From an uncultured virus (IMG/VR IMGVR_UViG_3300012007_000017) (taxonomy: Duplodnaviria; Heunggongvirae; Uroviricota; Caudoviricetes): a DNA stretch of 64,000 nt. The notes beneath the pieces were generated by a model. The model worked only from the letters and a program-made list of their open reading frames with translations, searched no databases and had not been told where the DNA came from. This document shows, piece by piece, positions 34,696-62,617 of this stretch. The DNA is taken from positions 1 through 64,000 of IMG/VR virus record IMGVR_UViG_3300012007_000017; one strand, written 5' to 3'. The position numbers and the translations under genes are program-made. Position 1 is the first letter of the stretch. The number at the start of each line of letters is the position of its first letter.

Positions 34696-34925
34696 TCGAA
34701 GTGATTTAGCGCCTTGTCCGTAAGAGCAGCAGTCTCATCAGATATGGTGTGGCGATAGACGTAGATAAGGACATCAGGAGTCGACCAACCACCTCGTTCC
34801 ATAATGTAGGCGTCTGGCAGTCCGTTGGCATGAAGCGAAGAGACACAATAATGACGAGTAGAATGGAAGCAGTAAACGTCTTCTAGTCCAACGCGCTGTT
34901 GCATACGCCTGAAGTAGTGGCTGCT
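34668..34925 (-). pseudogene. int: C-terminal fragment of tyrosine integrase
   Basis: FHSTRH (HxxR), RGGW, VYRH catalytic Tyr; only ~80 codons remain. Confidence 0.85.
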
Positions 34926-35005
34926 AGATAAAGTTAGGTGATGGTTATATTTTACAGGTTCTTAAATAGGAAACTTTACAACCTATTTTTCAAAGGAGGT
35001 ACAAA

Positions 35006-35209
35006 ATGACTGGAGCAGACAATATTCGTATCGCATTGGACAATTTGACGATGGCTGTACAAGAAAATAGCTATGGTGGCCTCGGCATAGAGGTCATTCA
35101 GAGTTTTGGAGAGCTATATTCGGCAATCGGAATCTATGCTATGGAGATGGAATCGCTCAAGAAAGAAAATGCCATGCTTAGGAAAATGTTAGTTGAGAAG
35201 TTTGGCTAA
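35006..35209 (+). CDS. Cassette gene, hypothetical
   Basis: Motif, RBS, ORF, hairpin 35217-35248. Confidence 0.7.
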   Translation: MTGADNIRIALDNLTMAVQENSYGGLGIEVIQSFGELYSAIGIYAMEMESLKKENAMLRKMLVEKFG

Positions 35210-35307
35210 TGTTGAGGAGAGTACCTGTAGAATCTTACTGGTACTCTCTGTTTTTCTTTTACAGGTCTTAATATAGCAATAATGCTGTTTAAGAAAGGAG
35301 TAAGAAA

Positions 35308-35619
35308 ATGAGTAATCTGAAAGATCAAACGAGTATAACCAAAAAGCATTACATAGCGGGGCTCTTTACCGGACTAGGCGCTGGCGAAGTGGAGCGGAGA
35401 AAACGGGCGGTCGAAATGTTGATTGCTGACAAGGCTGAAGACGTAGATCTTATTGAAACGTTCTATGCCAGAGTTGACATGGAAATCGTGGGGTTGAAGG
35501 CGGCACTTGAACAGAGCAAGTCTGCTGAAGAGGCAAAAGCATGGGCAAAAGATGTTCGGGAGATAATCGAAGATTCTGGATTTATAGAAGCTTATATTGA
35601 CGGCAAATTTGCTATCTGA
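35308..35619 (+). CDS. Cassette gene, hypothetical
   Basis: Motif, RBS, ORF, hairpin 35630-35657. Confidence 0.7.
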   Translation: MSNLKDQTSITKKHYIAGLFTGLGAGEVERRKRAVEMLIADKAEDVDLIETFYARVDMEIVGLKAALEQSKSAEEAKAWAKDVREIIEDSGFIEAYIDGKFAI

Positions 35620-35714
35620 TGAAAAGACGGAGGGTCGCCAAATTTACGGTGGCTCTCTGTTTTTCTTTTACAGCTCTTGTTATAGCAAACTGTGCTGTAG
35701 AGAAAGGAGACTAT

Positions 35715-35984
35715 ATGGTAATCGGTAGAGTTGAAAGAGGCGGAGACCTTGAGATTCTTAAAGATTGGGATCTGAATTTCGAGTTGATAGAAGACAAAGA
35801 CGACTATCTTATCGCTATGACTATAGGCGATAAAGATGAAGAGAACGGAATTGTCGTAACGATCAACGCTGTAGATTTCGATGAAATTAGAGAAACTCTC
35901 ATGTTGGTCCGTTCACAGATTAACAAGAAGATTATACAGAAAAGAAAACTGAATAGAGCATTAGATCGTGAATTTAAAGAATAA
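35715..35984 (+). CDS. Cassette gene, hypothetical (start 35715)
   Basis: RBS aaaggag; the upstream extension in the ORF track runs through a terminator and the motif. Confidence 0.7.
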   Translation: MVIGRVERGGDLEILKDWDLNFELIEDKDDYLIAMTIGDKDEENGIVVTINAVDFDEIRETLMLVRSQINKKIIQKRKLNRALDREFKE

Positions 35985-36129
35985 TATCGAGGAGGGTCAT
36001 TGTGAATTACAGTGGCTCTCCGTTTTTTCTTACAGTGGCTCTCCGTTTTTTTCTAATTTTAGGTGTACACAATTTACAACCATTATTATAGCAATAATGC
36101 TGATTCAATTTACTTAGGAGGAAAATGAA

Positions 36130-36498
36130 ATGAAGAAAATGTTTATGGCAGTAGTAGCAGTAGTTATGGCAATGGCAACCGCAATGCCGGTAATGGCAAA
36201 GGAGGCGGAAGAACCTGTCGTATTGGCTGAGACAACAACTGAATACACTTTCTCAGAGATCGTTGAAGAAATTGAATATTTGGACATTGAGGAGGACGGA
36301 GAAGTCAAGTCCGTAGTCAAGAATGTTGACTATGAGCGTGAAACGTACACTCTGATTGTCACATACAAAGAGACCAATGATGATGGATTCGATTGGGTTT
36401 CCGTAATAGTTGAAAACGGAATGGTCGAGATCCAGGGCAAAGGTCCCGGACAGATGGTGGCAGCAGAGTACGGCTACGAACAGTTCATGGAACAGTAA
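36130..36498 (+). CDS. Cassette gene, acidic exported protein with signal peptide
   Basis: MKK-hydrophobic-VMA signal peptide; Glu-rich mature part. Confidence 0.7.
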   Translation: MKKMFMAVVAVVMAMATAMPVMAKEAEEPVVLAETTTEYTFSEIVEEIEYLDIEEDGEVKSVVKNVDYERETYTLIVTYKETNDDGFDWVSVIVENGMVEIQGKGPGQMVAAEYGYEQFMEQ

Positions 36499-36612
36499 GA
36501 ATACGGAGTGAGGAGTTTAACCGCTCCTCCTCTTTTTTATTTTCAGGTGTACAAAATTTACAGCCCTTATTATAGAAAGAATACACCATTTAAATATAGG
36601 AGGTACAAAACA

Positions 36613-36717
36613 ATGTTAGGAATTATTGATATGGTGCTTGGAGTAGCACTTATTATGGTATTAGTAGCATTCCCGATTTATGTACTTACATGGGAGAAAA
36701 GGTGGAGAGAAAATTGA
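36613..36717 (+). CDS. Cassette gene, 34-aa membrane peptide
   Basis: RBS aggagg; single TM helix. Confidence 0.6.
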   Translation: MLGIIDMVLGVALIMVLVAFPIYVLTWEKRWREN

Positions 36718-36840
36718 ATATGGATAAAGAGAGCATCTAAGACAGGTGCTCTTCTTTTTTTCTAATTTTAGGTGTACACAATTTACAACCCTTATTATAG
36801 AAAGATTACACTAGATTTCTATCTATAAGGAGGCAATAAA

Positions 36841-37034
36841 ATGGCAATCATTATGTTAATCGTATGTGTTAGCTGCAGAATTATCATGGACGTTATTGAT
36901 ATTCAGGAGGCAAGAGCATGATTAAGTGGTTGAGGAATTTACTAAAACTGAATAAAAAGAAAGAAGAGAAACATGTAATAACTATCGATACCGTCTTAGA
37001 GTGGACGGTGTACATTGAGGAATTTGGAGCATAA
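36841..37034 (+). CDS. Two coupled micro-ORFs (36841-36921, 26 aa; 36918-37034, 38 aa)
   Basis: Each has aggagg RBS; ATGA overlap; not in ORF track. Confidence 0.55.
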
Positions 37035-37124
37035 TTTAGGGCTCCTATTCCTTTTATTTTTGCCATGTTTGCCTTTTACAGTTCTTATATTAGAAACAAC
37101 TAACCTTAAAGAAAGGAGAACAAT

Positions 37125-37448
37125 ATGAAAATGTTTAGAAAATGGGAATTAGTCGTTCAGGAATGTGCTCGCCAGGGCAAAGAAAGTGTGCTTGCACTGG
37201 TGACGTTGGACGCAATAGCAGCGATATTCACCGTAGGCGTTATCACCATTTTCAGCGCAATTGTAGAGGCTTTTATAGGCGCTCCCAATTGGCCTGAATT
37301 GGTGCTGGCCTGGTTGGTGGTATATATCGGATGCTTCAATGTAGTCATCGAAGCCACGGCATACGGATTATGCAGGGACGAGCTTGGATGTGACAACGAC
37401 TACATGATCAGAAAATATGTAAAAGAACGTTTTGATGAAGAGATTTGA
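37125..37448 (+). CDS. Cassette gene, two-TM membrane protein
   Basis: Motif, RBS, hydrophobic segments, hairpin 37460-37487. Confidence 0.7.
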   Translation: MKMFRKWELVVQECARQGKESVLALVTLDAIAAIFTVGVITIFSAIVEAFIGAPNWPELVLAWLVVYIGCFNVVIEATAYGLCRDELGCDNDYMIRKYVKERFDEEI

Positions 37449-37519
37449 AAGGAGGTTGTGAGAGGCGTCTATTACAGGCGCTTCTCTTTTTTCCTGATTA
37501 TATTCTACAGTTTTTATAG

Positions 37520-37767
37520 TAGAGGTAAACATAGGCACCCTTAAGAAGCCAACGAACCTGTTAAGCAGGGGAGGCTGCTGTGGAAGTAACAGCTACCTAT
37601 GTATAAGCAGTAGCGTGGCTCACCTCTAATAAAAGGAACCGTGCCCATGTGTGGTAACCCTGAGAAGCATATGAAACTATCAGGGAGGTCTGGATAAAGG
37701 CCTTTAAAAGAGGGTTCGTCAACCACGGTAAATGTCCAGGGCGACGATAGTGACAAAGCCTTTTATT
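37520..37767 (+). ncRNA. Candidate structured ncRNA 1 (~250 nt, two multibranch domains)
   Basis: Follows motif at 37504; no RBS-led ORF; nested stems tagaggt/acctcta, acatagg/cctatgt, aataaaagg/ccttttatt, accgtg/cacggt, ccctga/tcaggg. Confidence 0.7.
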
Positions 37768-37800
37768 TTTCGGGTGTACACAATTTACAGCCCTTATTAT

Positions 37801-37925
37801 AGAAAGAATCAATGGATGACAACCACTCGTGATGGGGGCGTGTTAAGGCGTAAGGACCATCCACAGTAAGTCACTGAGCCGTCTTAGAACGGAGTGCTCA
37901 AACTGAACTTAACAGGTTCTTTTTA
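37801..37925 (+). ncRNA. Candidate structured ncRNA 2 (~120 nt)
   Basis: Follows motif at 37784; stems aaagaatc/ggttcttt, tggatg/catcca, tgagc/gctca, ccgt/acgg. Confidence 0.65.
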
Positions 37926-38121
37926 TTTTTGTAATTTCGGGTGTACGAGAATTACAGCTTTTAATATAGAAGAAAGGAGATGAATTAGATTACATATCTG
38001 TTTCACATCTAAACCCACAAGGAGGCTCGTTACAGGGCCTCTTCTTTTTTTGGTGTGCATAAATTACAGTTCCTAATATAGAAACTTATTGACCACAAAC
38101 AAACTTAAAAGGAGAAATGAA

Positions 38122-38253
38122 ATGAAGAAAGCAATCTTAGGTATCGTAGTGGTGGCAGTAGCAGGTATCGTAGTATGCGCTGTCGCAAAAGCGAACGGTG
38201 TTGACTTTGTTCAGGTTGAGGATACACCTGAGGAGAAGTTCGTGGAAGAGTGA
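38122..38253 (+). CDS. Cassette gene, 43-aa membrane-anchored peptide
   Basis: MKKAILGIVVVAVAG...; RBS aaaggag; not in ORF track. Confidence 0.6.
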   Translation: MKKAILGIVVVAVAGIVVCAVAKANGVDFVQVEDTPEEKFVEE

Positions 38254-38365
38254 GCCTGATCCACTTTACGGATTGACAACTGAATAATGGATTTGGAAGA
38301 GTCGTTAGCGGAAATTGCAACGGCTCTTTCCTTTTTTTACTTAATTATTTTTAGGAGGAGACGGA

Positions 38366-39058
38366 ATGAGACAACCCGAAGATATTAAGATTGGCAATAG
38401 GACATTGGCAGAGGTCATTGAGAATCACAAGCATTGGTGGAAGGAGGATTGCGAAGGATGGAGAGACATGAGAGCAGGCCTCTTTAGAGCAGGCCTCTTT
38501 AGAGCAGACCTCAGTGGAGCAGACCTCTTTAGAGCAAACCTCCGTGGAGCAAACCTCCGTGGAGCAGACCTCAGTGGAGCAGACCTCAGTGGAGCAGACC
38601 TCAGTGGAGCAGACCTCAGTGGAGCAAACCTCAGTGGAGCAGACCTCAGTGGAGCAAACCTCAGTGGAGCAAACCTCAGTGGAGCAGACCTCTGTGGAGC
38701 AAACCTCAGTGGAGCAAAGAATGTTCCATATATCCCTTATGCTTGCCCCGACTTTGGGATGTTCATAGGTTTCAAAAAAGCGTCTGGTTACATTGTTGTG
38801 CTAGAAATCCCAGAGGATGCAAAAAGGCTCTCCGCAACAGGTCGCAAATGCAGATGCGACAAGGCAAAGGTTCTTGAGATTCAGAACGTTGATGGCACCA
38901 AAGCTAATGTTACAAAGGTTAAGAGCGGCTATGATTCGAACTTTGTTTATGAGGTAGGCAAAACGGTAAGCGTTGACAACTTCTGTGAGGACAGGTGGAG
39001 TGAATGCAGCCCAGGAATCCACTTTTTTATCAATCGCCAAGAGGCTATTAATTATTGA
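38366..39058 (+). CDS. Pentapeptide-repeat protein
   Basis: A[DN]L[SR]G repeats; C-terminal KCRC.KA..., EC.PGIHFF domain. Confidence 0.9.
38471..38716 (+). repeat. 15-bp tandem repeat (~16 units) encoding the pentapeptides
   Basis: gagcaRacctcagtg units. Confidence 0.95.
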
Positions 39059-39152
39059 GAGGTGACGGAATGAGCTACATAGATCGTAAGCAGTAAACCC
39101 GTACGCAGGTGACGAGGTAAGCGGATATATTTGTAGAAAGGAGTTACAGGCG

Positions 39153-39920
39153 ATGGGACGAGGATTGTATGGGCAGCGTATCATACAGGATTGGATAGAG
39201 GATAAACGTAAATCTCCTCTTAAAGAAGGAGACATATCTCTCTTGAATGTAGAGTACGCTATGGACATGTATAGAATTAAGAGAGAGTTTTCTCGGATTA
39301 CAACACTTAATTATTTTTGTATGATGCGGCTGTCTAAAAGCAAATACGAAGAAAACAATTATCGATGCATGCTGAATTCAGCGGTTAAGCAGCGGGATTT
39401 TTGTTGGGCAGTATACTGCAATCTTGAGAAATGGGTTGTTGATCCTAAATGGAAAAAGACCTTTGAGCGGGAAATTAAGCAGCTCGACAGTCGCCAAAAG
39501 CATATATACAGGATCGTTCAGGAAAATTTGAAGCTAACCGAATATTGGCCATTTTTTGAGGCAGTTGGCTTTGAACGTCTTTTAAACTTTGAAACTGAAT
39601 ATCGCGAAGATCCTTATGACATTGTGCTTGATCCGTTATTGACGGAAATCGAAGCATGGAACCGTGAGCACAAAGATGAGGTCGACGCCTACACGAAGAA
39701 GATTCAGCCCGAGCTTGACCGTAAAATCGCTTTTCTTACTAGAAAGGAGGCAATGGCAGAAGCTGAAAAAGAAGCCGAGCGAGCTAAGAAAAAAGCTGCC
39801 AAAGACGAGGAGAAAATGCTTAAAGAACAGCGCATACTTAACGACCGGGAAAGACGCAGAGAAGAGCGTGAGTTTAATAGCCTTATGCGTCGGACTAGTA
39901 CACCAGGCTGGACAAGCTGA
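39153..39920 (+). CDS. Hypothetical protein, charged coiled C-terminus
   Basis: 255-aa ORF with RBS. Confidence 0.65.
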   Translation: MGRGLYGQRIIQDWIEDKRKSPLKEGDISLLNVEYAMDMYRIKREFSRITTLNYFCMMRLSKSKYEENNYRCMLNSAVKQRDFCWAVYCNLEKWVVDPKWKKTFEREIKQLDSRQKHIYRIVQENLKLTEYWPFFEAVGFERLLNFETEYREDPYDIVLDPLLTEIEAWNREHKDEVDAYTKKIQPELDRKIAFLTRKEAMAEAEKEAERAKKKAAKDEEKMLKEQRILNDRERRREEREFNSLMRRTSTPGWTS

Positions 39921-39952
39921 TTATATTTTGTAGAAAGGAAATATGAGCAAAT

Positions 39953-40171
39953 ATGATCGAAATATCACTCACTTTAGCGATTATTCTGCTGATTATATTT
40001 TTTATAAGCGGTTTTTTGGCTGGAAGATACTCCAAAAAGCCTGATAAGCGCAAGGGCACTATGACTGTCGATGAGATGATGGGAATCGCTTCTATCAGTT
40101 GGGAAGTTCCTTACGAGGAGGTGGTACAGGCCGATACCATCAGACTCGATGTCATTCATAAGGATGCTTGA
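39953..40171 (+). CDS. Small membrane-anchored protein
   Basis: N-terminal TM helix. Confidence 0.6.
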   Translation: MIEISLTLAIILLIIFFISGFLAGRYSKKPDKRKGTMTVDEMMGIASISWEVPYEEVVQADTIRLDVIHKDA

Positions 40172-40229
40172 ATTTTACAGTTCCTATAATAGGTAACTAT
40201 TGGCTTGCATAAGAAAAGGAGGATTTATT

Positions 40230-40808
40230 ATGCAAATGGAGAAACTGGATAAAATAGCAGATGATTTGGCGGACATGATTTCTGCCGGAACTTCATCAGC
40301 TGCAGAATCGGAAGAGGAACAAGGGAATGTGTTTATCCCTGTAGGCGAATTCCGAGATGTTGCAAAGGCCAGAAACGAACAGGCTAAGCAGGACAATGAG
40401 CAACTCCACTGGGAGACTGAGTGGAAGAAAGCCGAGTTGGACGCAGCAACCAAGCAGAAAGAGGTTGAACTGGAACTGAAGAAGCTGGAGCAGGCGCTGG
40501 AAATCGAGAAGATGAGAGCCGAGAATGAAAAGGCGATCGCGGAGATGAAAGCACTTAACGATCAGCAGGTAGCAGAGACCAGAGCCGCATCTGAAAAGGA
40601 AGCTGCGGAAATTAATAAGGCTGCTTCTGACACTCGCTCTAAGAGAGATCTCATCGGCCGTATCTTGGACTTTATCGGAAGGGTACTTGTTGCAGTCTTG
40701 GGGCTCGGGGCATGCATTTATCAAGCCTCGACCATTCTGCGGGAGGAGGAAGACGGAAATTACGTCAATACCCGCAGCACCAATTTCTGGCATAAGCCCA
40801 GAACGTAA
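40230..40808 (+). CDS. Cassette gene, coiled-coil protein with C-terminal TM helix
   Basis: Motif 40174, RBS, hairpin 40822-40851. Confidence 0.7.
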   Translation: MQMEKLDKIADDLADMISAGTSSAAESEEEQGNVFIPVGEFRDVAKARNEQAKQDNEQLHWETEWKKAELDAATKQKEVELELKKLEQALEIEKMRAENEKAIAEMKALNDQQVAETRAASEKEAAEINKAASDTRSKRDLIGRILDFIGRVLVAVLGLGACIYQASTILREEEDGNYVNTRSTNFWHKPRT

Positions 40809-40932
40809 GTCAGTAACCAAAGGAGGACTTGGCAGAAATGTCAGGTCCTCTGTCTTTTTCATGGTGTACACAAATTACAGTTCCTAATATAGACACTATA
40901 AACTTTGTATTTTTGGGAAAGGAGAAGAAGGC

Positions 40933-41004
40933 ATGAGTTTCGGTATCGTACTTATCTTAATAGGAGTACTCTGGATCATGTTCGAAAACAAGAAGTCAGA
41001 GTAA
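40933..41004 (+). CDS. Cassette gene, 23-aa hydrophobic peptide
   Basis: MSFGIVLILIGVLWIMFENKKSE; sole ORF between motif 40874 and hairpin 41028-41061. Confidence 0.6.
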   Translation: MSFGIVLILIGVLWIMFENKKSE

Positions 41005-41112
41005 CACATAGTATCTAAGGAACTGGCGAAGAGTCGTTGTAAAAGAATACAGCGGCTCTTCTGTTTTTGCTGTAGGAGGCAAGCGATTATATTTTTAGAA
41101 AAGGAGAACAGA

Positions 41113-42162
41113 ATGAGTAACTACAAGACAAAGGAAGCAAACGAAAAGTCAGAGAAGATTCTTGATTATATTTCTGCAAACAGCGAGCAGGGCGTAACCA
41201 TCAAAGACATCGCAATCGCCTTTAACATGCCTGCAGAGACAGTTCGCCATTACGTCAAGACCTTATTCAACAACGGTTACATCGATCGCAGACAGCAGGG
41301 CTATGGTTCTACTCACAGATATTTCTGGAAGAAGCCTGAGGACAAGTCTCAGAATACTATGGAGGATACTGACAAAGAAGCAATGGGCGGAGTCGAGAGA
41401 GATCCTAGCACAATCATTAAGTGCGGCGAGTTCTGCAAAACCGGTGATGTCGTAGAGTGCTCCAGCAGATCTGGTGAAGGATTATATTTCAAGTATCTTG
41501 TACTGGTACCGTGGGAGCGTAAGGCGATGGTTCTCGGAATCTTTCCCGAAGGCCATCCGAATCTCAATCTTAATGACCCGAACCATATTTACATCGGTGA
41601 CGATCCTGAGACCGGCAACAAGCTCTATGTAGATGTCACCAATGTGTGCCAGAGAGGATACAAAACCTTCGGCAAGAGATTCTTCCACGCTGAGAAAGAA
41701 CGCATGGATGATGTCAAGAGCAGACTCAAGAGGGTTTTGCGTCTGGCTGAGCCTGGGCCTAATATCAAAGCTGAGAACCAGGAGCTTCAGGATGATATTC
41801 GGCAGTATAAGCTCGAGAATAAGGCAATGGCTCAGAGATACGAGCAGGATATTAAGGACATTAAAGCGACTCTCGATGCTGCACACGGAGCGGCTATGGA
41901 GTATGAGGCTAAGTACATAGCGGTGCTTAAGGAGAATCAGGAGCTTAACAGGCTTATTGAAAAGCTTAAGGACGAGACTCCTCACGATAAGGAAACCATC
42001 GAACCTGAGTACGATCCTGATTATGTGCAGAAACTGGAAGCCAAGTATGGAGACGCTTTGGTCAAGCTCAAGGCTGCAGAAACCAGAGTCGAGGATTACG
42101 ACTATTTTACTGATGCTATGAAAGATATTGTGATGAAAGTACTTGATAAAGGAGGAAATTAA
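41113..42162 (+). CDS. Winged-HTH and coiled-coil protein
   Basis: TIKDIA..FNM..ETVRHYVK.L...GYI; heptad-rich C-terminus. Confidence 0.7.
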   Translation: MSNYKTKEANEKSEKILDYISANSEQGVTIKDIAIAFNMPAETVRHYVKTLFNNGYIDRRQQGYGSTHRYFWKKPEDKSQNTMEDTDKEAMGGVERDPSTIIKCGEFCKTGDVVECSSRSGEGLYFKYLVLVPWERKAMVLGIFPEGHPNLNLNDPNHIYIGDDPETGNKLYVDVTNVCQRGYKTFGKRFFHAEKERMDDVKSRLKRVLRLAEPGPNIKAENQELQDDIRQYKLENKAMAQRYEQDIKDIKATLDAAHGAAMEYEAKYIAVLKENQELNRLIEKLKDETPHDKETIEPEYDPDYVQKLEAKYGDALVKLKAAETRVEDYDYFTDAMKDIVMKVLDKGGN

Positions 42163-42332
42163 TGCACGAACGTAAAGTTGGTAGACCGCCTCTTCCTGCA
42201 GGAGACCGTAAGGACAAGTCTGTACGGATTAGGCTGTCAACTGATGAACTGAATAGTGTGGTGAAGAAGGCTGAGGAAGAACAAACCTCGGTCTCTTCTT
42301 ATATTCGCGAGAGGATTAAGAACAATGGATGA
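42162..42332 (+). CDS. Ribbon-helix-helix-like DNA-binding protein
   Basis: GRPP...VRIRLS.DE......AEE...SVS.YIR; not in ORF track. Confidence 0.65.
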   Translation: MHERKVGRPPLPAGDRKDKSVRIRLSTDELNSVVKKAEEEQTSVSSYIRERIKNNG

Positions 42333-42483
42333 ACTGAAATTTGTAGAATTTGATAAGTACTGCAGTACATGCATTCACAAGGATGAAGAGGAGAGCGATC
42401 CTTATAAGAAATGCAATGACTGTCTGGCTATTCCGGCAAGAGAGTATTCGCACAAACCTGAGTACTATAAGAAGAAAGATTAA
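42325..42483 (+). CDS. Small Cys-rich protein
   Basis: YCSTC...CNDC; not in ORF track. Confidence 0.6.
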   Translation: MDELKFVEFDKYCSTCIHKDEEESDPYKKCNDCLAIPAREYSHKPEYYKKKD

Positions 42484-42503
42484 TTATATTTAGGAGGAGC
42501 ATT

Positions 42504-42701
42504 ATGGCAGAAAGAATTACGAACACTCTGTTCAAAATTCATGTTGGACGCTTTATTTGGTATGTCAATATGTGGACGTGGTGCTGGGAACATAACGCAC
42601 CGATTTTCATTACGCGGTTGCTCGTTATGCTAATCAAAGTTAATGCAAAAACCGCAGACTTTTTATACAGGTCCCCCGAGTACTCCAAAAAGAAAGATTA
42701 A
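42504..42701 (+). CDS. Hypothetical protein flanked by 43-bp direct repeats
   Basis: RBS; repeats 42457-42499 and 42675-42717. Confidence 0.55.
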   Translation: MAERITNTLFKIHVGRFIWYVNMWTWCWEHNAPIFITRLLVMLIKVNAKTADFLYRSPEYSKKKD

Positions 42702-42722
42702 TTATATTTAGGAGGAGGTACT

Positions 42723-42998
42723 ATGTTAGGTTTTTTCTGTGACTGGTGCGGTAAACCATACAAGCCATATCCTGTGAAAGAATACGGAAACACCATGGCT
42801 GCCGGTTTCTTAAGTAAGAAAAGCGACGCTGACAAGAAAGAGATTCCTATAGGCACTAAAGTTGTTGGCGAAGCCTGGGCATCAATAGAGGGACGCAGCG
42901 AATATGGCTTAAATACTTCTCAAATTTGCCCTGACTGCTATGAGGCATATTTGGAATTTGTGAAGAATAGGAAGGAAGGAACCAATGATCAAGCTTGA
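42723..42998 (+). CDS. Zinc-finger-like protein
   Basis: CDWC...CPDC. Confidence 0.6.
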   Translation: MLGFFCDWCGKPYKPYPVKEYGNTMAAGFLSKKSDADKKEIPIGTKVVGEAWASIEGRSEYGLNTSQICPDCYEAYLEFVKNRKEGTNDQA

Positions 42999-43842
42999 TA
43001 AGATATTCAATCCTAAGGTGCTTAGCGCATTGGCTGTGGCGGGTGTCGTGGCTACAGCAATAATGGCGGCACTCGAAGGAATCAATGGCAGCGATGTTAT
43101 CAGAGAAGCTAAGAAAACCGCTCCTAAGGAAGGCGTCTGGGCTATCTCCAAGCATTATATTCCCAGAGTAGTTCCTGCATTTGGCAAAACCATTGTCATA
43201 GGTGGCGTAACCGTGTTCTGCGTTGTAACATCATGCTACCTCAGTGGTCTGCAGATTGTAGCTTTATCTGGCACCATTGCAGGACTTGTCAGTCAGAGAG
43301 ATGCAGTAGAGAAGGAAATCGTTAAGCTTCCAGGCGGCAAAGAAGCTCTTGCAAAGGTCAAGAAGGAAGTCGCTCTGGCTACGGCTGAGAAGAAGATCGC
43401 TGAGAATGAAAAGCGTAAACCTTGGAAGTATCAGACGATCGAAGATACCGGTTACGGAGATGAATTGTTCCTTGACGAATGGTCTGGGCGATTGTTCCTG
43501 TCATCAGAAGAAGCGGTGAGAAGAGGCTTCGAAAACTTCAATGCTGAAAGAGATGATGGAATGGATCTTCCTTACAATGGGCATAGTGATATGAATCTAC
43601 CGCCAGCAAGTTCATATAACGACTTGTTTACAGCGTGGGGTTTGGTCCCAAGCGGATTAGGCTGGGCTTTTGGATGGCCTGCTAGCGATGATTATTATGA
43701 GCACAGAGCTATACCCTATACTATCGAAGTTATTCCTGTCGAAGAAATGAAAGACAAGGAACTTGAGAAGTACGGAAAAGATCTGCATATCATCCGTATT
43801 CCTGCAGGCTACTATCCTATGGAGTGTTACCTCGAGGTCTGA
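42985..43842 (+). CDS. Membrane-anchored paralogue 1 (DUF6353-like, from recall)
   Basis: P.hydrophobic N-terminus, second TM, acidic C-domain; similar layout to 44186 and 53045. Confidence 0.55.
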   Translation: MIKLDKIFNPKVLSALAVAGVVATAIMAALEGINGSDVIREAKKTAPKEGVWAISKHYIPRVVPAFGKTIVIGGVTVFCVVTSCYLSGLQIVALSGTIAGLVSQRDAVEKEIVKLPGGKEALAKVKKEVALATAEKKIAENEKRKPWKYQTIEDTGYGDELFLDEWSGRLFLSSEEAVRRGFENFNAERDDGMDLPYNGHSDMNLPPASSYNDLFTAWGLVPSGLGWAFGWPASDDYYEHRAIPYTIEVIPVEEMKDKELEKYGKDLHIIRIPAGYYPMECYLEV

Positions 43843-43902
43843 TTATATTTTACAGTTCCTATAGTAGGTAGCATTGAAATATTTTTGGAAAGGAGGAGCA
43901 GG

Positions 43903-44124
43903 ATGGTAACTATGATATTGGTATTTTGCCTTATCGTGGTGCTGATCGGGTTCGCTATCGGAGCACTCGTGTTAGGAGTATGCTCGATTGGAACTCTTTT
44001 GGCGCTTGGATTCGAGTTGGCACTGTACCTGATGCCGGTAATTATCATCTACATGATTGCAAGAGTAGTGTGGAAGATGACTACCACGAAAAAGGCCATA
44101 AAGAAGGCTAAAGAAAAAGAGTAA
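43903..44124 (+). CDS. Cassette gene, small membrane protein
   Basis: Motif 43849; hairpin 44132-44163. Confidence 0.65.
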   Translation: MVTMILVFCLIVVLIGFAIGALVLGVCSIGTLLALGFELALYLMPVIIIYMIARVVWKMTTTKKAIKKAKEKE

Positions 44125-44185
44125 CTGAGATAGAGGACTCGTAAGATTGATTACGGGTCCTCTTATATTTTTTTTGGAGGTAGAA

Positions 44186-44977
44186 ATGAAACTCAAGAAC
44201 ATAGCCAAATTTGCCAGCGCTATCGGGAAGGGCATAGATGAGTATGGTCCCCAGATTATGGCGGTTGGCAGTGCTATATGCTTTGTAACAGGTGTTATAT
44301 TTGCGGCAAAGGAAAGCCCTGCAGCATTAGAGGCATTAGAAGAGAAGGTAGCAGAGAACCCTGATATGAATATTTTTGAGAAGGGCGCTACAGTAGTCAG
44401 CAGAATGCCTAAGACAGTAATCGCTACAGTTTCCGGTTTAGCGATGCATATTTTTGCCTGGAAGAAAGTTCTGGGAAAACTCGCCACTGTTACAGGCATT
44501 GCGGCCGTTGTCACACAGGATAATGTTAATCTCGTAGAAGCAGCAAAGGAGGTAGTAGGCCCTGACAAGGCCAAGGAAATTGTCAAGGTTAAGGACCAGA
44601 TGACCCAATGGGATGAAGATCCAACGGATAAGATTGATGTTATATATCCTTACACATGGGATGGCCTGGGTATAACGGTTTGGATGACTCCTGCCGAGTA
44701 TGCAGATCGAACTAACGAGAATATCGACCAGTTAGCTGACAACGAAGAGCTTCCTGTATTTGACTACTTCTACAATTACAAATGCGCGTATCCGCCTAAT
44801 CAGGACTATGGATGGAGCCTTGATAGCAGCGGTTGCGGGGCAAATCCCAGTGACATAAGAAGATGGGCTAAGGATGAACTCCATGCTGAACTGAAGCAGC
44901 ATATGTATAAGGGCAAGTATCCTGGGTATCTGGTTGTGCTCGACAACATGCCGTGTGAGCCTGTCGAGAATCGCTAA
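44186..44977 (+). CDS. Membrane-anchored paralogue 2
   Basis: YGPQIMAVG...AAKE pattern. Confidence 0.55.
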   Translation: MKLKNIAKFASAIGKGIDEYGPQIMAVGSAICFVTGVIFAAKESPAALEALEEKVAENPDMNIFEKGATVVSRMPKTVIATVSGLAMHIFAWKKVLGKLATVTGIAAVVTQDNVNLVEAAKEVVGPDKAKEIVKVKDQMTQWDEDPTDKIDVIYPYTWDGLGITVWMTPAEYADRTNENIDQLADNEELPVFDYFYNYKCAYPPNQDYGWSLDSSGCGANPSDIRRWAKDELHAELKQHMYKGKYPGYLVVLDNMPCEPVENR

Positions 44978-45072
44978 TTATATTTGGTAACATAGGGGCT
45001 GTGCACAAATAACAGCTCCTATAATAGCAAGAAATAGTTCTTGTGTTATACATTAAGAAAGGAGGACTTATT

Positions 45073-45510
45073 ATGTCCAACAGAAACAAGGTAGCAAAGG
45101 ATTATGATGCAAAGAAGGCAGAGGATCAGAAGGATGTAAAGAATCCCGAGACCCCGGATGAGAAGACGGAAGGAACTGAAAACGATCAGCAGGATTCCGG
45201 TGAGGACAAGAAGGAAGAGAAGAAGAAATTCTCACTTCCCAAGATCGCACTCCCGAAACTCAAACTGCCTTCCAAGGAGACTGTGTTTGCATGGTTGAAA
45301 GGGATCTTTGTGTTCCTGCTGGGTACCGTTGCTGGAGCAATTGGTATTGTAGCAGCGGCTACGAAGATCGTTGAAGCCGGCAAGATCGCAGATGACTCTG
45401 AGGAAGAGCAGGACGAGAAGACGGAAGAGACGGGCTGGGTTGTAGAGGAAACCAAACTCGAACCTGAAACTGAGCCGGAACCTGACGAGGCAGAGGCAAC
45501 TGAGGCTTAA
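45073..45510 (+). CDS. Cassette gene, acidic single-TM protein
   Basis: Motif 45009; hairpin 45518-45550. Confidence 0.65.
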   Translation: MSNRNKVAKDYDAKKAEDQKDVKNPETPDEKTEGTENDQQDSGEDKKEEKKKFSLPKIALPKLKLPSKETVFAWLKGIFVFLLGTVAGAIGIVAAATKIVEAGKIADDSEEEQDEKTEETGWVVEETKLEPETEPEPDEAEATEA

Positions 45511-45731
45511 TCAACCGGGAGGGGGTCAGCAACAAAAGCTGGTCCTCTCCTTTTTTATTTTTTTTTCTTAGGAGGTTAATATGAAGAAACTTATTAGATG
45601 GCTTGGTCAGTCAAGTATTACCTTTGGGTTCTGGCTCCTTGATGTAATTGGAGATGTTAAGCACTTCTGATTTGCTTGAAAATTACAGTTCCTATAATAG
45701 GTAACTATCGTTAAGCAAGAAAGGAGAAAGG

Positions 45732-45896
45732 ATGAATACACTGGTCTTGCTCAAGATCATTGGCGGATTTGTCGGAGCCCTGATTGGAGCCGCAGGAGGT
45801 TTCACAGCAGGCGCAAAGGCACTCCCCAAGATTCAGAGAGCATGGAAAGAGATGACATCGTTGTTCTCGGAACTTCACGAAGACGATGATGAGTAA
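45732..45896 (+). CDS. Cassette gene, 54-aa Gly-rich membrane peptide
   Basis: Motif 45682, RBS, hairpin 45905-45936; not in ORF track. Confidence 0.6.
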   Translation: MNTLVLLKIIGGFVGALIGAAGGFTAGAKALPKIQRAWKEMTSLFSELHEDDDE

Positions 45897-45956
45897 CTGA
45901 TGGCAAGGGTCACTGTAGAACTTTACAGTGGCTCTTATATTTTTGAGGAGATGAAC

Positions 45957-46571
45957 ATGGCTGAAGTAAAGCTTAGTGACATCGTAACCAATAACAGTGA
46001 CGCAGCAAGACGCCACGAACAGGCACCGCCGCCTACCACAGAAGAATTCGAACCGCCTGTAGAAAGACGTCATGGTTTTTTCGGCAGGATGTTTGGCCGT
46101 ATACATATTGCCGACAACTTCGAAGGCGCAGGACAGACTGTGCTTGAAGAGGTGATTATCCCCACTGTCATTGACGGAATCAGGGATGTCATCTACACAG
46201 CTACTGATTATATTCTGTACGGCGGTGGACAAAGACACAGCAGGAACAACAGACGAGGAGGCTCTTACACATCCTACAGTAAGAAGAGCCAGCAGAAGTC
46301 AGCTAGACGGAACGCACCTTCATCCTCTTCTTACTATTTCACTTATGATGATCGCGCTACGGCTGACAAGGACCTAGAAAAGATGAGGGACGTTGTCGAC
46401 CAGAGAGATTTTGTAACCATTATGGATATGTTCTCAATCGCCAAGAGACCTACCAGCAACTACACCTATAACGACTGGGGCTGGTATGATCTCAGATCGG
46501 CGATGGTCAGGAGGACGACGGACGGCAGGTATTATATCGACTTGCCTAAGCCTGTTCCGATTGAGGAGTAA
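45957..46571 (+). CDS. Conserved hypothetical phage protein
   Basis: WGW.DL...Y.I.LP.P C-terminal motif. Confidence 0.6.
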   Translation: MAEVKLSDIVTNNSDAARRHEQAPPPTTEEFEPPVERRHGFFGRMFGRIHIADNFEGAGQTVLEEVIIPTVIDGIRDVIYTATDYILYGGGQRHSRNNRRGGSYTSYSKKSQQKSARRNAPSSSSYYFTYDDRATADKDLEKMRDVVDQRDFVTIMDMFSIAKRPTSNYTYNDWGWYDLRSAMVRRTTDGRYYIDLPKPVPIEE

Positions 46572-46765
46572 TTATGAAGTGCCCGTGTAAAGGGTGCGAC
46601 TTTAGGGATGCAGAATGCCATGCTAATTGCCGATTATATTCTAAATGGAAGAAAGAGCAGGAATCCATTAAGAAGAAAAGGACTTTAGATGCTGTTCTGC
46701 ATGCCTATTTTAAGCAACCCGAACGTTGGCAAGACCACTGTTTTATGTAGAAAGGAGAGGCTGAG

Positions 46766-46990
46766 ATGAGTATCCCGACTATCAATCTCATAGCCACTGG
46801 AGAAAACATTAACCGTATGCGCTTGGAGGCGGGTATTGCGGTAAAAGATGTTCAGGAAGCTTGCGGGTTCTCTACGCCGAATGCCGTGTACAAATGGATT
46901 CACGGACAGAGTCTTCCAACAATTGATAACATGCTTATCTTAGCCTCTATGCTTAATGTAACACTTAACGACATTTTGGTTGTCGAGTAA
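46766..46990 (+). CDS. XRE-family HTH regulator
   Basis: AVYKW.HG.SLP.IDN..LA HTH pattern. Confidence 0.85.
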   Translation: MSIPTINLIATGENINRMRLEAGIAVKDVQEACGFSTPNAVYKWIHGQSLPTIDNMLILASMLNVTLNDILVVE

Positions 46991-47000
46991 AGGAGGTACT

Positions 47001-47633
47001 ATGACGAAAGACGAGAAGGTTAAGTCTTTATGTAATTGGTGTAACAGTCATACCTGTTATCCGACACACTGCAGAATCTATGACCTTTGTCAACAATACC
47101 CATTTAGTACGGCTTGGACTAATTTGCCAGACGAGGATATCGATAAAATTTTTGAAGCACTTTGGAAGGAGGACGTGGAAAGAACAGAGAAAGGAGACCA
47201 GAAGGTCATGGAGGAAAGGCGTGAGAGTACTGAGATGACGAGAGAGGAAGTTGCAGAAAAGGTTATGAAAGATCTGATAGGTACGAATAATCCTAGAGAG
47301 GCAGCTACACGGATTCTATTCGGAACATATAGTTCTTCATCTTCCGATCAGAAAGCCAAAGCAGACTACGGTAAGGAAGAACTTACTCTGGTACCCAGGC
47401 GAATTATTCACGATATTTGTGCGATCCGCATGTATGGTAATAAGAAGTATCCTGAGGGCGGACCTGATAACTGGAAGCAGGTTGCGATCGAGAGATATCG
47501 GAATGCGACATTCAGACATTTCCTTGCATATTTGGACGATCCTCAAGGGAAAGATAAAGAAAGCGGTTTCCCTCACCTGTGGCATCTGGCTTGTAATATA
47601 GCATTTCTGTGTGAGATGGAGGATAAAGTATGA
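47001..47633 (+). CDS. Protein with C-terminal dATP/dGTP diphosphohydrolase-like (DUF5664) domain
   Basis: K.D.GK..L.L.P, YG.KKY...NW, RH, D.ESG.PHL.H.ACN..FL. Confidence 0.75.
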   Translation: MTKDEKVKSLCNWCNSHTCYPTHCRIYDLCQQYPFSTAWTNLPDEDIDKIFEALWKEDVERTEKGDQKVMEERRESTEMTREEVAEKVMKDLIGTNNPREAATRILFGTYSSSSSDQKAKADYGKEELTLVPRRIIHDICAIRMYGNKKYPEGGPDNWKQVAIERYRNATFRHFLAYLDDPQGKDKESGFPHLWHLACNIAFLCEMEDKV

Positions 47634-48184
47634 GCAATAGAGATGAGTCTCTGGATATGTTCCTACAGAAACTTGACGCTATAAATTCGTTCTGTGAGTC
47701 TAGGGGAGACGAAAGCCAGCACGCTTGCGACGGTTGTATTCTTAGCGATTATTGCGTCGACATTCCAAGTCGCGAGTCATATAAAACGGCAGTTAAAAGC
47801 ACGGATAAATGCATGGAGCTTATTAGGAGAGCTAAAGAGGAGGATAAAGATGTTTGATACGACAATCGATTTGCTGTTGAGCATGTTCTGTATTGCTTTA
47901 CTCGCTGCAGCTTTTGCAGTCATAGTAGCTGGTGGAGCGTATATTACAATACGCATCATAGTAAGTATCATGATATTTATTAGGGAGGAATTATGACCCC
48001 AACAAGACTGTATGAGTTCGCCAAAGAAGGCGCGAAGGATATTGTGGATCTGGATGAGATCGTGGACACCTATAAGCGTTTAGATTCCGGGGCGATCGAG
48101 ATGAACCTAAAGAATGGTATGAAGGGTGTATTCAGGATTGACGGCAACAGCAAGACAAAATATCTGATGATTCAGTGGAGGTGA
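47630..48184 (+). CDS. Three small coupled hypothetical ORFs (47630-47857, ~47850-47996, 47993-48184)
   Basis: Overlapping start/stop codons with RBSs. Confidence 0.5.
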
Positions 48185-48187
48185 AAT

Positions 48188-48781
48188 ATGAAAGTATATA
48201 TTTCTCCCACAAGACCGGACGTAAGTGAGATTGATGGTAGTTGCACGTACGTATTTCTGGCGGGTGGTATAACAAAGTGTTGGGATTGGCAAGACCGATG
48301 CTGTGAATTGATTCAGGAAATAGCTAAAGACAATGAGATAAACACGGATAGACTGATCATCTTTAACCCTAGAAGATTATCTTTTGATACTGCCAATAAA
48401 ACCGCTTCTGATGAGCAGATTAAGTGGGAATATGACTATTTAAATTTTTGCGATATTTTTAGTATGTATTTCTGCGAGTCAGATAGTGTTCAGCCCATAT
48501 GTCTCTATGAACTTGGTCATTATATTCCTGGCATTGTGAGTCAATATTCAAACTATCAAAAAGCTCTACAGCACATCATAGTAACTGCTGAATCAAATTA
48601 TGCACGCTGCTATGATGTGGAGAAACAGCTTGAACTGGATCTTGGACGAATTGAGAAAAGATTGATATTTGATAAAAACGAGCATAGAGAAGAAGCTATA
48701 AAATCTCACGCCAGCAGAATTTTGATTGCCTATGAAAGGGATCAGACAAATAAGGTAATAAAGCGTATAAACATTGTGTAA
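48188..48781 (+). CDS. Nucleoside 2-deoxyribosyltransferase-like protein
   Basis: VFLAGGI...WQ, FNPRR, QI.WE, PI.L.ELG. Confidence 0.8.
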   Translation: MKVYISPTRPDVSEIDGSCTYVFLAGGITKCWDWQDRCCELIQEIAKDNEINTDRLIIFNPRRLSFDTANKTASDEQIKWEYDYLNFCDIFSMYFCESDSVQPICLYELGHYIPGIVSQYSNYQKALQHIIVTAESNYARCYDVEKQLELDLGRIEKRLIFDKNEHREEAIKSHASRILIAYERDQTNKVIKRINIV

Positions 48782-48803
48782 AAAGGAAGTGGAGGTGAAT
48801 AAA

Positions 48804-49103
48804 ATGGACGAAAATTTATCTAATGTTGGCATTGACGCCGATATGGAAACCAAAGCGATCATCATCGTAGCTAGGTATATCAAGGAGCATCTCGATAAAA
48901 CAGACGGCGAAGTATATTTCGATGTTTATACCGTGTGGAAATGCAAGACCATACAGAACTGGAAATTCCTTATTAGTTCTTCTCTGCCTGATGGTATGTA
49001 CTACGAGGTCACATATAACGGGGATAAGGAAGAGTGGTATCTCGATGCCTATAAGAAGTTCGAGGATCGCTGTATTAAGTCTGGCTATGACGATTATATT
49101 TAG
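48804..49103 (+). CDS. DUF6275-like protein (from recall)
   Basis: VW.CKT.QNWK, DGMYYE.TYNGDK.E.Y.DAYKK. Confidence 0.65.
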   Translation: MDENLSNVGIDADMETKAIIIVARYIKEHLDKTDGEVYFDVYTVWKCKTIQNWKFLISSSLPDGMYYEVTYNGDKEEWYLDAYKKFEDRCIKSGYDDYI

Positions 49104-49118
49104 AAAGGAGAATCAAAC

Positions 49119-52072: not shown

Positions 52073-52125
52073 TTATATTTTACAGCTCTTGTAATAGAAA
52101 GACTATTTTTACAGGAGGTAACAAG

Positions 52126-52951
52126 ATGACAAAAGCAAGAAGAGCATGGCTTATCATTGTCGGAAGCGCCATGACCGTAGTTGGTTATAGGTGCATGTGC
52201 AATGGAGCAGAAGGTGTTATTTGCGGAATCTTGGGTATTGAACCCGAAAAGTAAAAACTGAATATGGAAGCGAAGAGTCGTTGTAGAAGATTACAGCGGC
52301 TCTTCTGTTTTTCATTATATTTTTAAAAACGAAAGGAGAAAAATCATGAAAAAGATCAAGAGTTTGCTGTGGAGTATTATGGGTGTTGGCTGTGCTGTAG
52401 GTTTCGCTTGCCTGGGAGCAATTGCGAGTCTGTCCTATATCGGCTGGGCACTCGAAGACTTCAGACAGTTCAGAGACAACTGATTATATTTAGAAAGGAG
52501 ATCGAAACTATGAAGACATTTTTCTACGGTGTAAAACTCGGTGCAGGACTGGTAGCAGGCAAGGTTATCATCACAGCGGCAGCTTACGTGGCACTGAGAG
52601 CTGTGTTCGGCATGGATGGGCTTAATTATATTCTCGGCAGAGGACCTAAGCCCAGCTGGATGAAAGGCCAGGAAGAGCCTAAAGTCGAGTGATCTAATAT
52701 TACAGCTCCTATAGTAGAGTAGCAATATTTCACTTAGGAGGTGCAGGATGAAAAAGAAAAGTATGATCAAGACACTCGCTGCTGGTATCGCTTTTGGAGC
52801 TATCGTAGGCGTAAAGGTCTGTCTCGACATTTATGACTTTGGCTATCAGACCAGAGTCAAAGAAGAAATGGGCGACAAAGCCGCGGCAAGACTCAACAAG
52901 AGCGTGCAGGAGGTCCGTGTGATCGTCAAAGACACACTTAAGAAAAACTGA
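52126..52951 (+). CDS. Four small membrane-type ORFs (52126-52254, 52346-52483, 52510-52692, 52748-52951)
   Basis: RBSs, hydrophobic N-termini; first and last sit in motif-hairpin cassettes. Confidence 0.6.
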
Positions 52952-61700: not shown

Positions 61701-61791
61701 GTGTGCACATTTTACAATCATTGTAATAGAGAGGAAGAAACGATATACATGACACATCGTTCCGGCCTCTTTTTTCTTTTGGAGAAGAAAC

Positions 61792-62082: not shown

Positions 62083-62617
62083 AGGTCAACATGCGATCTT
62101 TAGTCCATCTACTCCAAGCTGGCTTCGCTATGATGAGGCAAAAATCAGAAGCTTCTTAGAAGCGAAAGAAGCAATGGTTCTTGGCACAAAGCTTCATGAC
62201 TATGCTTGTCAGAGTATTCAGCTTGGACGCAACTTACCCAAAAGACCTGCTGACACTGTATCGCTCTATGTCAACGACGCAATTAAGTACGGAATGACGC
62301 CAGAGCAATGCTTATATTTTTCACCAAGTGTCTTCGGACATGCGGATGCTATCAAATTTGATAGAGGACTCTTACGGATACACGACCTTAAAACAGGCGC
62401 GAATCCAGGCAAAATGGATCAGCTGCTAATCTACGATGCCCTGTTCTGTCTTGAGTATGGATACGATCCTCATAGCATTAAGCACAACTTGAGAATCTAT
62501 CAGTACGACGACATTAACGAGGTTACGCCTGACCCAGACGAGATTGCACAAATCATGGATCAGATTATTCGAGTTGATGACATCAAGACAGAAAGAGAGG
62601 AATCGATGTATGAATGA
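62054..62617 (+). CDS. PD-(D/E)XK exonuclease-like protein
   Basis: GT.LH, GHADAI, IHDLKTG, QL.IY. Confidence 0.8.
   Translation: MKWNEHYRLKGQHAIFSPSTPSWLRYDEAKIRSFLEAKEAMVLGTKLHDYACQSIQLGRNLPKRPADTVSLYVNDAIKYGMTPEQCLYFSPSVFGHADAIKFDRGLLRIHDLKTGANPGKMDQLLIYDALFCLEYGYDPHSIKHNLRIYQYDDINEVTPDPDEIAQIMDQIIRVDDIKTEREESMYE

Follow-up and report, generated by a model that had tools for sequence, protein, structure and literature searches.

The locus at 37801–37925 of this phage genome raises the question of whether it is an RNA gene and, if so, what its product would do. From the letters alone, a preliminary description had presented it as a compact non-coding cassette of about 120 nt, following a full-length motif, with a possible double pseudoknot and a ribozyme-like or protein-decoy function. 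We refer to this unit as RNA2. Small RNAs of phages are emerging as tools against host immunity, in the form of tRNAs, repeat mimics, and single-guide-like decoys. To our knowledge, most of these anti-immunity RNAs were found through likeness to something already known. RNA2 matches no family, yet within an accessory region that otherwise shuffles fast it is the best-conserved stretch; the phage belongs to a gut lineage related to Faecalibacterium phage FP_oengus. Should a partner be identified, RNA2 would represent a new RNA effector.

Results

The phage genome and its setting

The window, which is the stretch of DNA analysed here, covers positions 1–64,000 of an IMG/VR virus record 66,153 bases in length, which CheckV rates as complete. 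It encodes the large terminase, portal, prohead protease, tape measure, distal tail protein, and holin, as well as a GH25 lysin with cell-wall-binding repeats (Pfam/PHROGs scans). Downstream of these structural and lysis genes lies a long series of small genes on the + strand, with a primase-polymerase, an annealing protein, a helicase, and nucleases. The best cultured match is Faecalibacterium phage FP_oengus, the primase-polymerase of which is 50% identical to that of the window, and the public runs with related sequence are labelled as animal or bovine gut metagenomes. The window belongs to a tailed, siphovirus-type phage of the animal gut, and its host is probably a gut Firmicute.

RNA2 lies in an array of motif-headed cassettes

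The full-length motif placed upstream of RNA2 by the preliminary description is real. Its core, TTACAGNNNNTANTATAG, matched 19 times with up to two mismatches, versus 1.38 expected from 100 shuffles (18 of the 19 on the + strand; span 34952–52717), and a stricter motif expression added a copy at 61712. Two classes of the motif share the common core TTTACAG, four bases, TA, one base, TATAG, and differ upstream (GGTGTACAC-type versus TGCTTGA-type). The copy before RNA2 belongs to repeat families of 64 nt and 42 nt. All inspected copies stand ahead of either Shine-Dalgarno/ATG starts or small RNAs, and a scan with the sigma-70 consensus picked up none of the copies. The motif before RNA2 presumably acts as a promoter.

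From ~36050 to 38340, eight tiny units form a chain, each opening with the motif. The coding units of this array, unlike RNA2, carry strong Shine-Dalgarno sequences. These coding units and the cassette after RNA2 end in a hairpin plus a T-run (five terminator-like sites versus 1.7 expected), and the terminator loops share TTACAG just before the 3′ arm, whereas RNA1 and RNA2 finish with a U-run and have no compact hairpin before it. Three consecutive units are without a usable open reading frame (ORF):

37523–37770, + strand: variable slot occupied by RNA1, a non-coding unit of 220–250 nt with its own motif and U-run
37802–37930, + strand: RNA2, the whole non-coding unit, from the inferred start at 37802–37807 through the end of the U-run
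37970–38050, + strand: next cassette, with motif, ~75 nt, and terminator at 38020–38043; its length varies in relatives

In the last of these cassettes, a strong Shine-Dalgarno sequence precedes a minimal frame of start codon, a single codon, and stop, and a canonical terminator comes next. The version in the relative described below has the same layout, with a GTG start, a 12-nt insertion, and compensatory substitutions in the terminator stem.

The array resembles the promoter/stem-loop cassettes (PeSLs) that, according to PMC2839356, drive modular shuffling in T4-type phages. As with PeSLs, repeated terminator-plus-promoter junctions bound small swappable units, and the units differ between close relatives exactly at the junctions. 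Unlike the sigma-70-like promoters of PeSLs, the motif here is not sigma-70-like by the consensus scan. Moreover, PeSLs are the junctions themselves, whereas RNA2 is a conserved non-coding payload between two junctions.

A YonO-like polymerase is a candidate reader of the motif

Judging from its sequence, the phage protein encoded at 62544–65438 is a single-chain two-barrel RNA polymerase of the YonO type. Because the gene extends beyond the end of the window, it does not appear in the ORF lists:

62544–64000, + strand: 5′ part of the polymerase gene, which reaches genome position 65438 (L095:1045–3939)

The predicted protein of ~940–964 residues gave a full-length match to phrog_4291 (E = 5.6e-294) and scored 23.7 bits against the Pfam RdRP family, for which the cut-off is 23.8 bits. 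It also contains a Sigma70_r4_2 match (44.8 bits, residues 118–153, a helix-turn-helix), another helix-turn-helix at the C-terminus, and a DFDGD metal-binding motif at residue 554.

The YonO-like polymerase is a candidate reader of the motif. However, sequence comparisons do not support a simple link between the two: FP_oengus has a polymerase homologue, annotated as 'RNA-dependent RNA polymerase', yet no motif copy, and tandem copies of the motif occur in an AT-rich phage of 175.7 kb that has no homologue of the YonO-like polymerase. A search for a MotA-type activator domain had no match in that phage or anywhere else, and so carries no weight. In the 175,720-base IMG/VR contig of that unrelated large phage (L090:1480–1900), each of the tandem 72-nt units contains a TGCTTGA-type motif followed by a short hairpin, and two more copies lie near 141,973 and 142,498. 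The promoter of the YonO-type polymerase was not determined in the 2017 report (PMC5467207), and a search of one literature collection for a later consensus of YonO-type promoters found none. The array described here would be useful in this respect, as it offers many copies of one promoter-like motif in a phage with a putative YonO-type polymerase.

Limits, parts, and coding capacity of RNA2

The relative carries this motif as well, 5 nt ahead of the 5′ end of a tRNA gene, a spacing which implies that transcription begins at the G of TATAG or a few bases beyond it and thus, for RNA2, somewhere within 37802–37807. The parts of the unit are as follows:

37763–37802, + strand: promoter-like motif before RNA2, with its core at 37785–37802, ending in TATAG
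37803–37810, + strand: 5′ strand of the closing stem, the partner of which (37915–37922) abuts the U-run; 8–9 pairs in the minimum-free-energy (MFE) fold and the RNAalifold consensus
37811–37863, + strand: invariant 5′ domain
37841–37847, + strand: candidate pseudoknot strand TGTTAAG, a perfect 7-bp complement of 37908–37914
37864–37908, + strand: fast-evolving helical arm, with ~14 pairs in four short helices
37905–37930, + strand: invariant tail, a 4-bp hairpin with a 7-nt loop, followed by the U-run

RNA2 contains no plausible ORF, and its sole ATG opens six codons without a Shine-Dalgarno sequence. We therefore rejected the reading of RNA2 as a small-peptide gene, for which a six-codon frame and no ribosome-binding site were found. 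The promoter-like motif, the U-run directly after the closing stem, and the absence of coding capacity are the features of a stand-alone small RNA gene.

The terminator scan found no compact G+C-rich terminator hairpin in RNA2. The U-run is preceded by GGTTCTTT, which pairs with the first bases of the RNA (37803–37810); the bases ahead of the U-run can instead form a local hairpin of 4 bp, the 7-nt loop of which resembles the other terminator loops of the phage. A covariance model of RNA2 (R1) retrieved 37802–37930 at 162 bits and the relative at 160 bits, with one copy per genome. With the filters off, R1 also matched the ordinary terminators of the relative at 8–16 bits, and these matches consist of the closing stem and the U-run with the inside deleted. 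These results suggest that RNA2 can be read as a terminator-type hairpin with ~105 nt of additional RNA in its loop. The copies of the promoter motif share a downstream part, and in RNA2 this part doubles as the 5′ strand of the closing stem (37803–37810). Since this strand is derived from the motif and the 3′ strand is terminator-like, the closing stem could exist without selection for it.

The pairings alone do not exceed chance expectation

The pairings put forward for RNA2 are all in the sequence:

37803–10/37915–22, + strand: terminal stem AAAGAA(TC)/(GG)TTCTTT
37813–18/37858–63, + strand: stem TGGATG/CATCCA
37864–67/37902–05, + strand: stem CAGT/ACTG
37875–79/37896–900, + strand: stem TGAGC/GCTCA
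37879–82/37889–92, + strand: stem CCGT/ACGG
37841–47/37908–14, + strand: cross pairing TGTTAAG/CTTAACA
37824–28/37892–96, + strand: cross pairing CACTC/GAGTG

However, C37879, G37892, and G37896 are each used twice, so that these stems cannot all form together. The 125-nt stretch has an MFE of −32.5 kcal/mol, compared to −28.9 ± 3.5 kcal/mol for 200 shuffles (z = −1.01), and 31 of the 200 shuffles fold at least as stably; on the minus strand, folding is no stronger than in shuffles (z = −0.09). A perfect helix of at least 7 bp occurs in 29.9% of 1000 dinucleotide shuffles of the RNA2 region, and the region contains eight helices of at least 5 bp, versus a shuffle mean of 5.4. These results indicate that the pairings by themselves are no better than chance.

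The double pseudoknot was not borne out in the form proposed. The 7-bp pairing (37841–47/37908–14) is invariant in the sole relative, helices of this length are common by chance, and the pairing clashes with two basal arm pairs of the consensus fold. As for the second, 5-bp pairing, two of its bases also belong to nested stems, and the relative has a weaker version of it with no compensating change. For the 5′ domain, there are two mutually exclusive helix options, in which either 37813–18 or 37829–35 pairs with 37857–64.

RNA2 is conserved in a three-part pattern

Conservation was compared with the one retrievable relative, a 27.5-kb IMG/VR contig (loci L002/L086), of which 7,548 bases were aligned at 82.3% identity overall. 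RNA2 is 93.6% identical in this relative, compared to 80–83% for the flanking blocks; the third-codon positions of the two best-kept neighbour genes are 79–80% identical. All eight differences in RNA2 (seven transitions and one deletion) fall in the arm, as shown by identities of 61/61 for 37803–37863, 34/42 for 37864–37905, and 25/25 for 37906–37930. The two longest runs of perfect identity in the alignment are 37903–37979 (77 nt) and 37795–37870 (76 nt).

The motif copies are 90–100% identical to the relative, with 36/40 for the one before RNA2, and identity runs of 55–74 nt are also found around other copies (36782, 37052, 40160, and 44977). The conservation of RNA2 may therefore be partly promoter-proximal, or partly due to recent recombination between the repeated junctions. 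Among the runs listed, however, identity extends 68 nt past the motif at RNA2 versus at most ~36 nt at the other copies.

The RNAalifold consensus of the two sequences contains 37 pairs, of which two are compensatory (37871/37902 and 37882/37889, each U-A to C-G) and none is broken; the remaining four arm changes are in loops or a bulge. When seven random transitions and one deletion were placed in the arm and the structure was re-predicted each time, at least two compensatory pairs were obtained in 42 of 1000 simulations (P = 0.042). On the structure proposed earlier, the changes amount to one compensatory pair, two wobbles, and a single broken pair, and 31 of its 37 pairs never vary. The broken pair is in the 5-bp cross pairing, in which another pair changes to a wobble. 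Covariation in this single homologue, which had been named as a check, tends to favour the arm of the consensus fold through its two compensatory pairs, and the 5-bp cross pairing is broken once. The terminal stem, the 6-bp stem, and the 7-bp cross pairing are all invariant in the relative. Because the closing stem, the 5′ domain, and the 7-bp pairing do not vary in this one homologue, covariation says nothing for or against them.

Exact 21–24-mers of the invariant domain were found only in the related IMG/VR contig and not in metagenome_contigs or genome_contigs. Scans anchored on the proteins of the upstream 107-aa gene and of the 349-aa gene also returned only the same contig. RNA2 was absent from 79 loci around relatives of the pentapeptide-repeat gene that lies downstream (blastn and covariance model), and the covariance model found no RNA2 in the motif-bearing 175-kb phage, FP_oengus, or GenBank MT835495.1. 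Among the INPHARED phages, there was no DNA match to 37400–38100.

RNA2 persists in public runs while its neighbours are swapped

The public runs with related sequence amounted to 20 rows from 13 studies. Contigs across RNA2 were obtained in all four of the runs examined, from four studies, and cover 37783–38336, 37766–38336, 37784–37933, and 37803–37979, the last being from an RNA-seq library. In most of the runs listed, less than 0.2 of the sampled words were present, and uncovered bins count as absence only where contigs join across them. The RNA-seq-library contig (176 nt, depth 4.1) has five differing letters and one gap. It starts at 37803, which is ~20 nt downstream of the match starts of the DNA contigs in two other runs (37783 and 37784), and the longer DNA contig of the third run passes through the promoter-like motif of RNA2. 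Since contigs cannot prove ends, strand, or transcription, the start at 37803 is a weak hint. At its other end, the contig passes the U-run and the next motif, ending at 37979.

RNA1 is scarcely covered in the four runs, where contigs join from 37520 to elsewhere, and a joint from 38336 to 39099 in three runs skips the pentapeptide-repeat gene. The presence of RNA2 in all four runs with its neighbours swapped indicates that RNA2 is a stable resident of the variable region.

The claim of a compact, ~120-nt non-coding cassette after the motif is thus supported by the motif, the U-run, and the lack of an ORF, and it is also backed by the strong conservation, the compensatory arm changes, and the RNA-library contig. 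The case for an RNA gene comes from this context and not from the pairings alone. The motif, the absence of coding capacity, the pattern of conservation, the structure-preserving changes in the arm, and the presence in relatives and in an RNA library are direct observations. They make it quite probable that RNA2 is a real, separately transcribed, conserved small RNA gene.

It could be argued instead that RNA2 has no RNA function and is a filler or decayed cassette between junctions, conserved through junction constraint or recombination. The likeness of the array to the shuffling promoter/stem-loop cassettes of T4-type phages described in PMC2839356 is consistent with this explanation. So are the differences in cassettes among relatives (RNA1 versus a tRNA; the pentapeptide-repeat gene skipped in three runs), the 55–74-nt identity runs within which other motif copies likewise lie, and the modest fold statistic of RNA2 (z only −1.0). 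In contrast, the extent of identity past the motif (68 nt, versus at most ~36 nt at the other copies listed) exceeds that of the other junctions. Furthermore, the arm changes at a near-neutral rate, yet all of its pairs are kept, two of them by double change, and RNA2 was kept in the four runs while its neighbours were swapped. We regard the absence of any RNA function as unlikely, although it deserves to be taken seriously.

The tail is complementary to RNAs of the upstream slot

RNA1, which occupies the slot upstream of RNA2, has no Rfam match, a fold z of −1.1, and no counterpart in any relative seen. In the relative, its place is taken by a tRNA gene (Rfam tRNA, 31.7 bits; ARAGORN anticodon TAA). 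The anticodon loop of this tRNA is odd.

The RNA2 tail (37908–37919) is a perfect 12-nt Watson-Crick complement of RNA1 at 37554–37565, which is the longest perfect + strand complement among those listed for the window. In the relative, the tail is a perfect 10-nt complement of positions 5–14 of the tRNA (L086:4776–4785 versus 4992–5001). Sites complementary to the tail over at least 10 nt are rare, with nine in 64 kb and four in 15 kb.

These matches raise the possibility that RNA2 acts by base pairing, with its tail (37904–37919) docking on the RNA of the upstream slot or on a host RNA that carries an identical short sequence. The chance that both complements fall in the adjacent cassette is estimated to be less than 1 in 1000, in a test that was chosen post hoc. 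However, the RNA1 and tRNA matches use different registers of the tail, the matching tRNA segment would be buried in the folded tRNA, and the near-palindromic tail hairpin makes inverted matches easier to find. Pairing to the ribosome-binding regions of 81 phage genes was not enriched, either: the best energy was −33.8 kcal/mol, compared to −27.4 to −42.8 kcal/mol for 40 shuffles. An antisense run-length scan with G-U pairs allowed gave a longest run of 15, within the 13–18 of 30 shuffles. Docking by the tail is, in our estimation, rather improbable.

We consider it more doubtful still that RNA2 is the conserved core of a full RNA–RNA docking system with a dedicated promoter, in which the tail pairs with the 'cargo' RNA of the swappable slot. 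Such a system could control the processing, stability, or delivery of the cargo RNA. Its promoter would possibly be read by the YonO-like polymerase of the phage with its sigma-region-4-like domain. It is just as conceivable that the invariant core of RNA2 is instead a new catalytic or protein-capturing fold.

RNA2 as a possible leader of the next cassette

Several features of RNA2 would also fit a cis-acting leader or attenuator, in which a structured RNA and a weak terminator set the read-through into the next cassette or cassettes. RNA2 is without a compact G+C-rich terminator hairpin, the RNA-library contig does not stop at the U-run but extends to 37979, and there are alternative pairings, both in the 5′ domain (37813–18 or 37829–35 with 37857–64) and at the 3′ end (tail hairpin versus closing stem). 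However, the cassette that follows is headed by a motif copy of its own, 30 nt downstream, and no product can be recognised in it, so that a gene to be regulated is not evident. An attenuator therefore appears highly improbable.

RNA2 matches no known RNA family

In searches with Rfam 15, which covers the known self-cleaving classes (hammerhead, twister, twister-sister, pistol, hatchet, HDV-like, and others), there was no match at gathering score in the whole window and none at E ≤ 10 in 37400–38100 or 37780–37940. ARAGORN found no tRNA or tmRNA genes in the window, and no tRNA-clan match at E ≤ 10 was found near RNA2, with the neighbour cassette of the relative (31.7 bits) as the positive control.

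Two reports describe RNAs of phages that act on, or resemble components of, CRISPR systems: stand-alone 89-nt single-guide-like RNAs, ended by a terminator, that sequester Cas9 (bioRxiv 10.64898/2026.06.01.729453), and solitary-repeat RNAs (PMC10651486). By likeness to these, RNA2 could be an RNA anti-CRISPR, sequestering a Cas protein of the host by imitating a tracrRNA, a single-guide RNA, or a CRISPR repeat. As in the viral single-guide RNAs and RNA anti-CRISPRs described there, RNA2 is short, stand-alone, ended by a terminator, and located in an accessory (variable) region. Unlike the viral single-guide RNAs, RNA2 has no long repeat/anti-repeat duplex, its longest helices being 6–8 bp, and no Rfam family, CRISPR-related ones included, matched at E ≤ 10. 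No anti-CRISPR protein family was found among the neighbours (Pfam and PHROGs scans). We rejected the identification of RNA2 as a single-guide RNA or tracrRNA because of the missing long duplex, with no helix above 8 bp, and we see only a slim chance for the anti-CRISPR explanation as a whole.

The suggested ribozyme-like character of RNA2 fared no better, as the recommended cmscan-type check for small ribozyme families gave no match at RNA2, and none of any Rfam 15 family at E ≤ 10 around it. Ribozymes are common in phage intergenic regions, and RNA2 is compact, with an invariant core, a variable peripheral arm, and a 7-bp loop-to-tail complement that adjoins the closing stem, but a self-cleaving ribozyme of a new class around two pseudoknots is barely credible given that the 5-bp cross pairing is weaker in the relative, the 7-bp one does not exceed chance expectation, no conserved cleavage-site signature is identifiable, and RNA2 needs no processing because the unit has its own start and stop.

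Discussion

Proposed mode of action of RNA2

The reading that we prefer is that RNA2 is a stand-alone gene for a stable non-coding RNA of ~120–125 nt, which has a closed three-part build and acts in trans. We put the probability of this reading at roughly 0.5. From the features of the locus, we infer the exact ends of the RNA, its polymerase, the fold of its 5′ domain, its partner, and its biological effect.

Transcription would start at the end of the repeated promoter-like motif, within 37802–37807, and stop at the U-run. The terminator stem would be built from the 5′ end of RNA2 itself and the bases just ahead of the U-run, in which case the two ends of the product would pair with each other and close a junction. 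The part enclosed by this stem would consist of the invariant 5′ domain of ~55 nt, the fast-evolving arm, and the invariant tail hairpin. The helices of the arm appear to be kept though its sequence changes, and the arm may be a structural spacer only.

RNA2 would then bind a partner in trans via the invariant 5′ domain and the tail, and this binding through the invariant parts is its likeliest mode of action. RNA2 would sequester or mark its partner, which may be a protein of the host or the phage, or else a second RNA. As with the viral single-guide RNAs, a protein-decoy mode would seem the likeliest, which is one of the two functions first suggested for the cassette.

Relation of RNA2 to other phage RNAs

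RNA2 most likely belongs to a kind already known, that of the orphan phage small RNAs. The 'species 1 and 2' RNAs of phage T4, rnaC and rnaD, are stable small RNAs encoded beside the phage tRNA genes. By their description, RNA2 resembles rnaC and rnaD in being a stable phage non-coding RNA of 100–140 nt with mutually paired ends and no assigned function, and it adjoins a tRNA gene in the relative. Unlike rnaC and rnaD, RNA2 has its own promoter-like motif and U-run, outside a tRNA precursor. No T-arm or acceptor/CCA-like features were seen in RNA2.

RNA2 is also similar to the phi29-type pRNA, which is likewise ~120 nt in length, with paired ends and loops able to pair between molecules. However, we rejected its identification as a phi29-type pRNA since there was no Rfam match. 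Unlike a phi29-like podovirus, the phage described here packages its DNA with the usual large terminase and portal.

Other features of the phage genome

The gene at 38366–39058 encodes a pentapeptide-repeat plus DUF5758 protein and has no motif copy of its own. Relatives of this protein were found in >200 IMG/VR contigs, and the gene looks like a recent insertion. Three paralogous DUF6353 genes are located at 42985–43842, 44147–44977, and 53045–53995, and FP_oengus likewise has three. The genes at 46980–47633 and 48188–48781 encode domains of the dATP/dGTP diphosphohydrolase type and the nucleoside 2-deoxyribosyltransferase type, which hint at modified DNA bases in the phage. Finally, the third longest run of perfect identity with the relative (74 nt) is at 34774–34847, where no convincing + strand gene is seen, and this stretch may be another conserved non-coding element.
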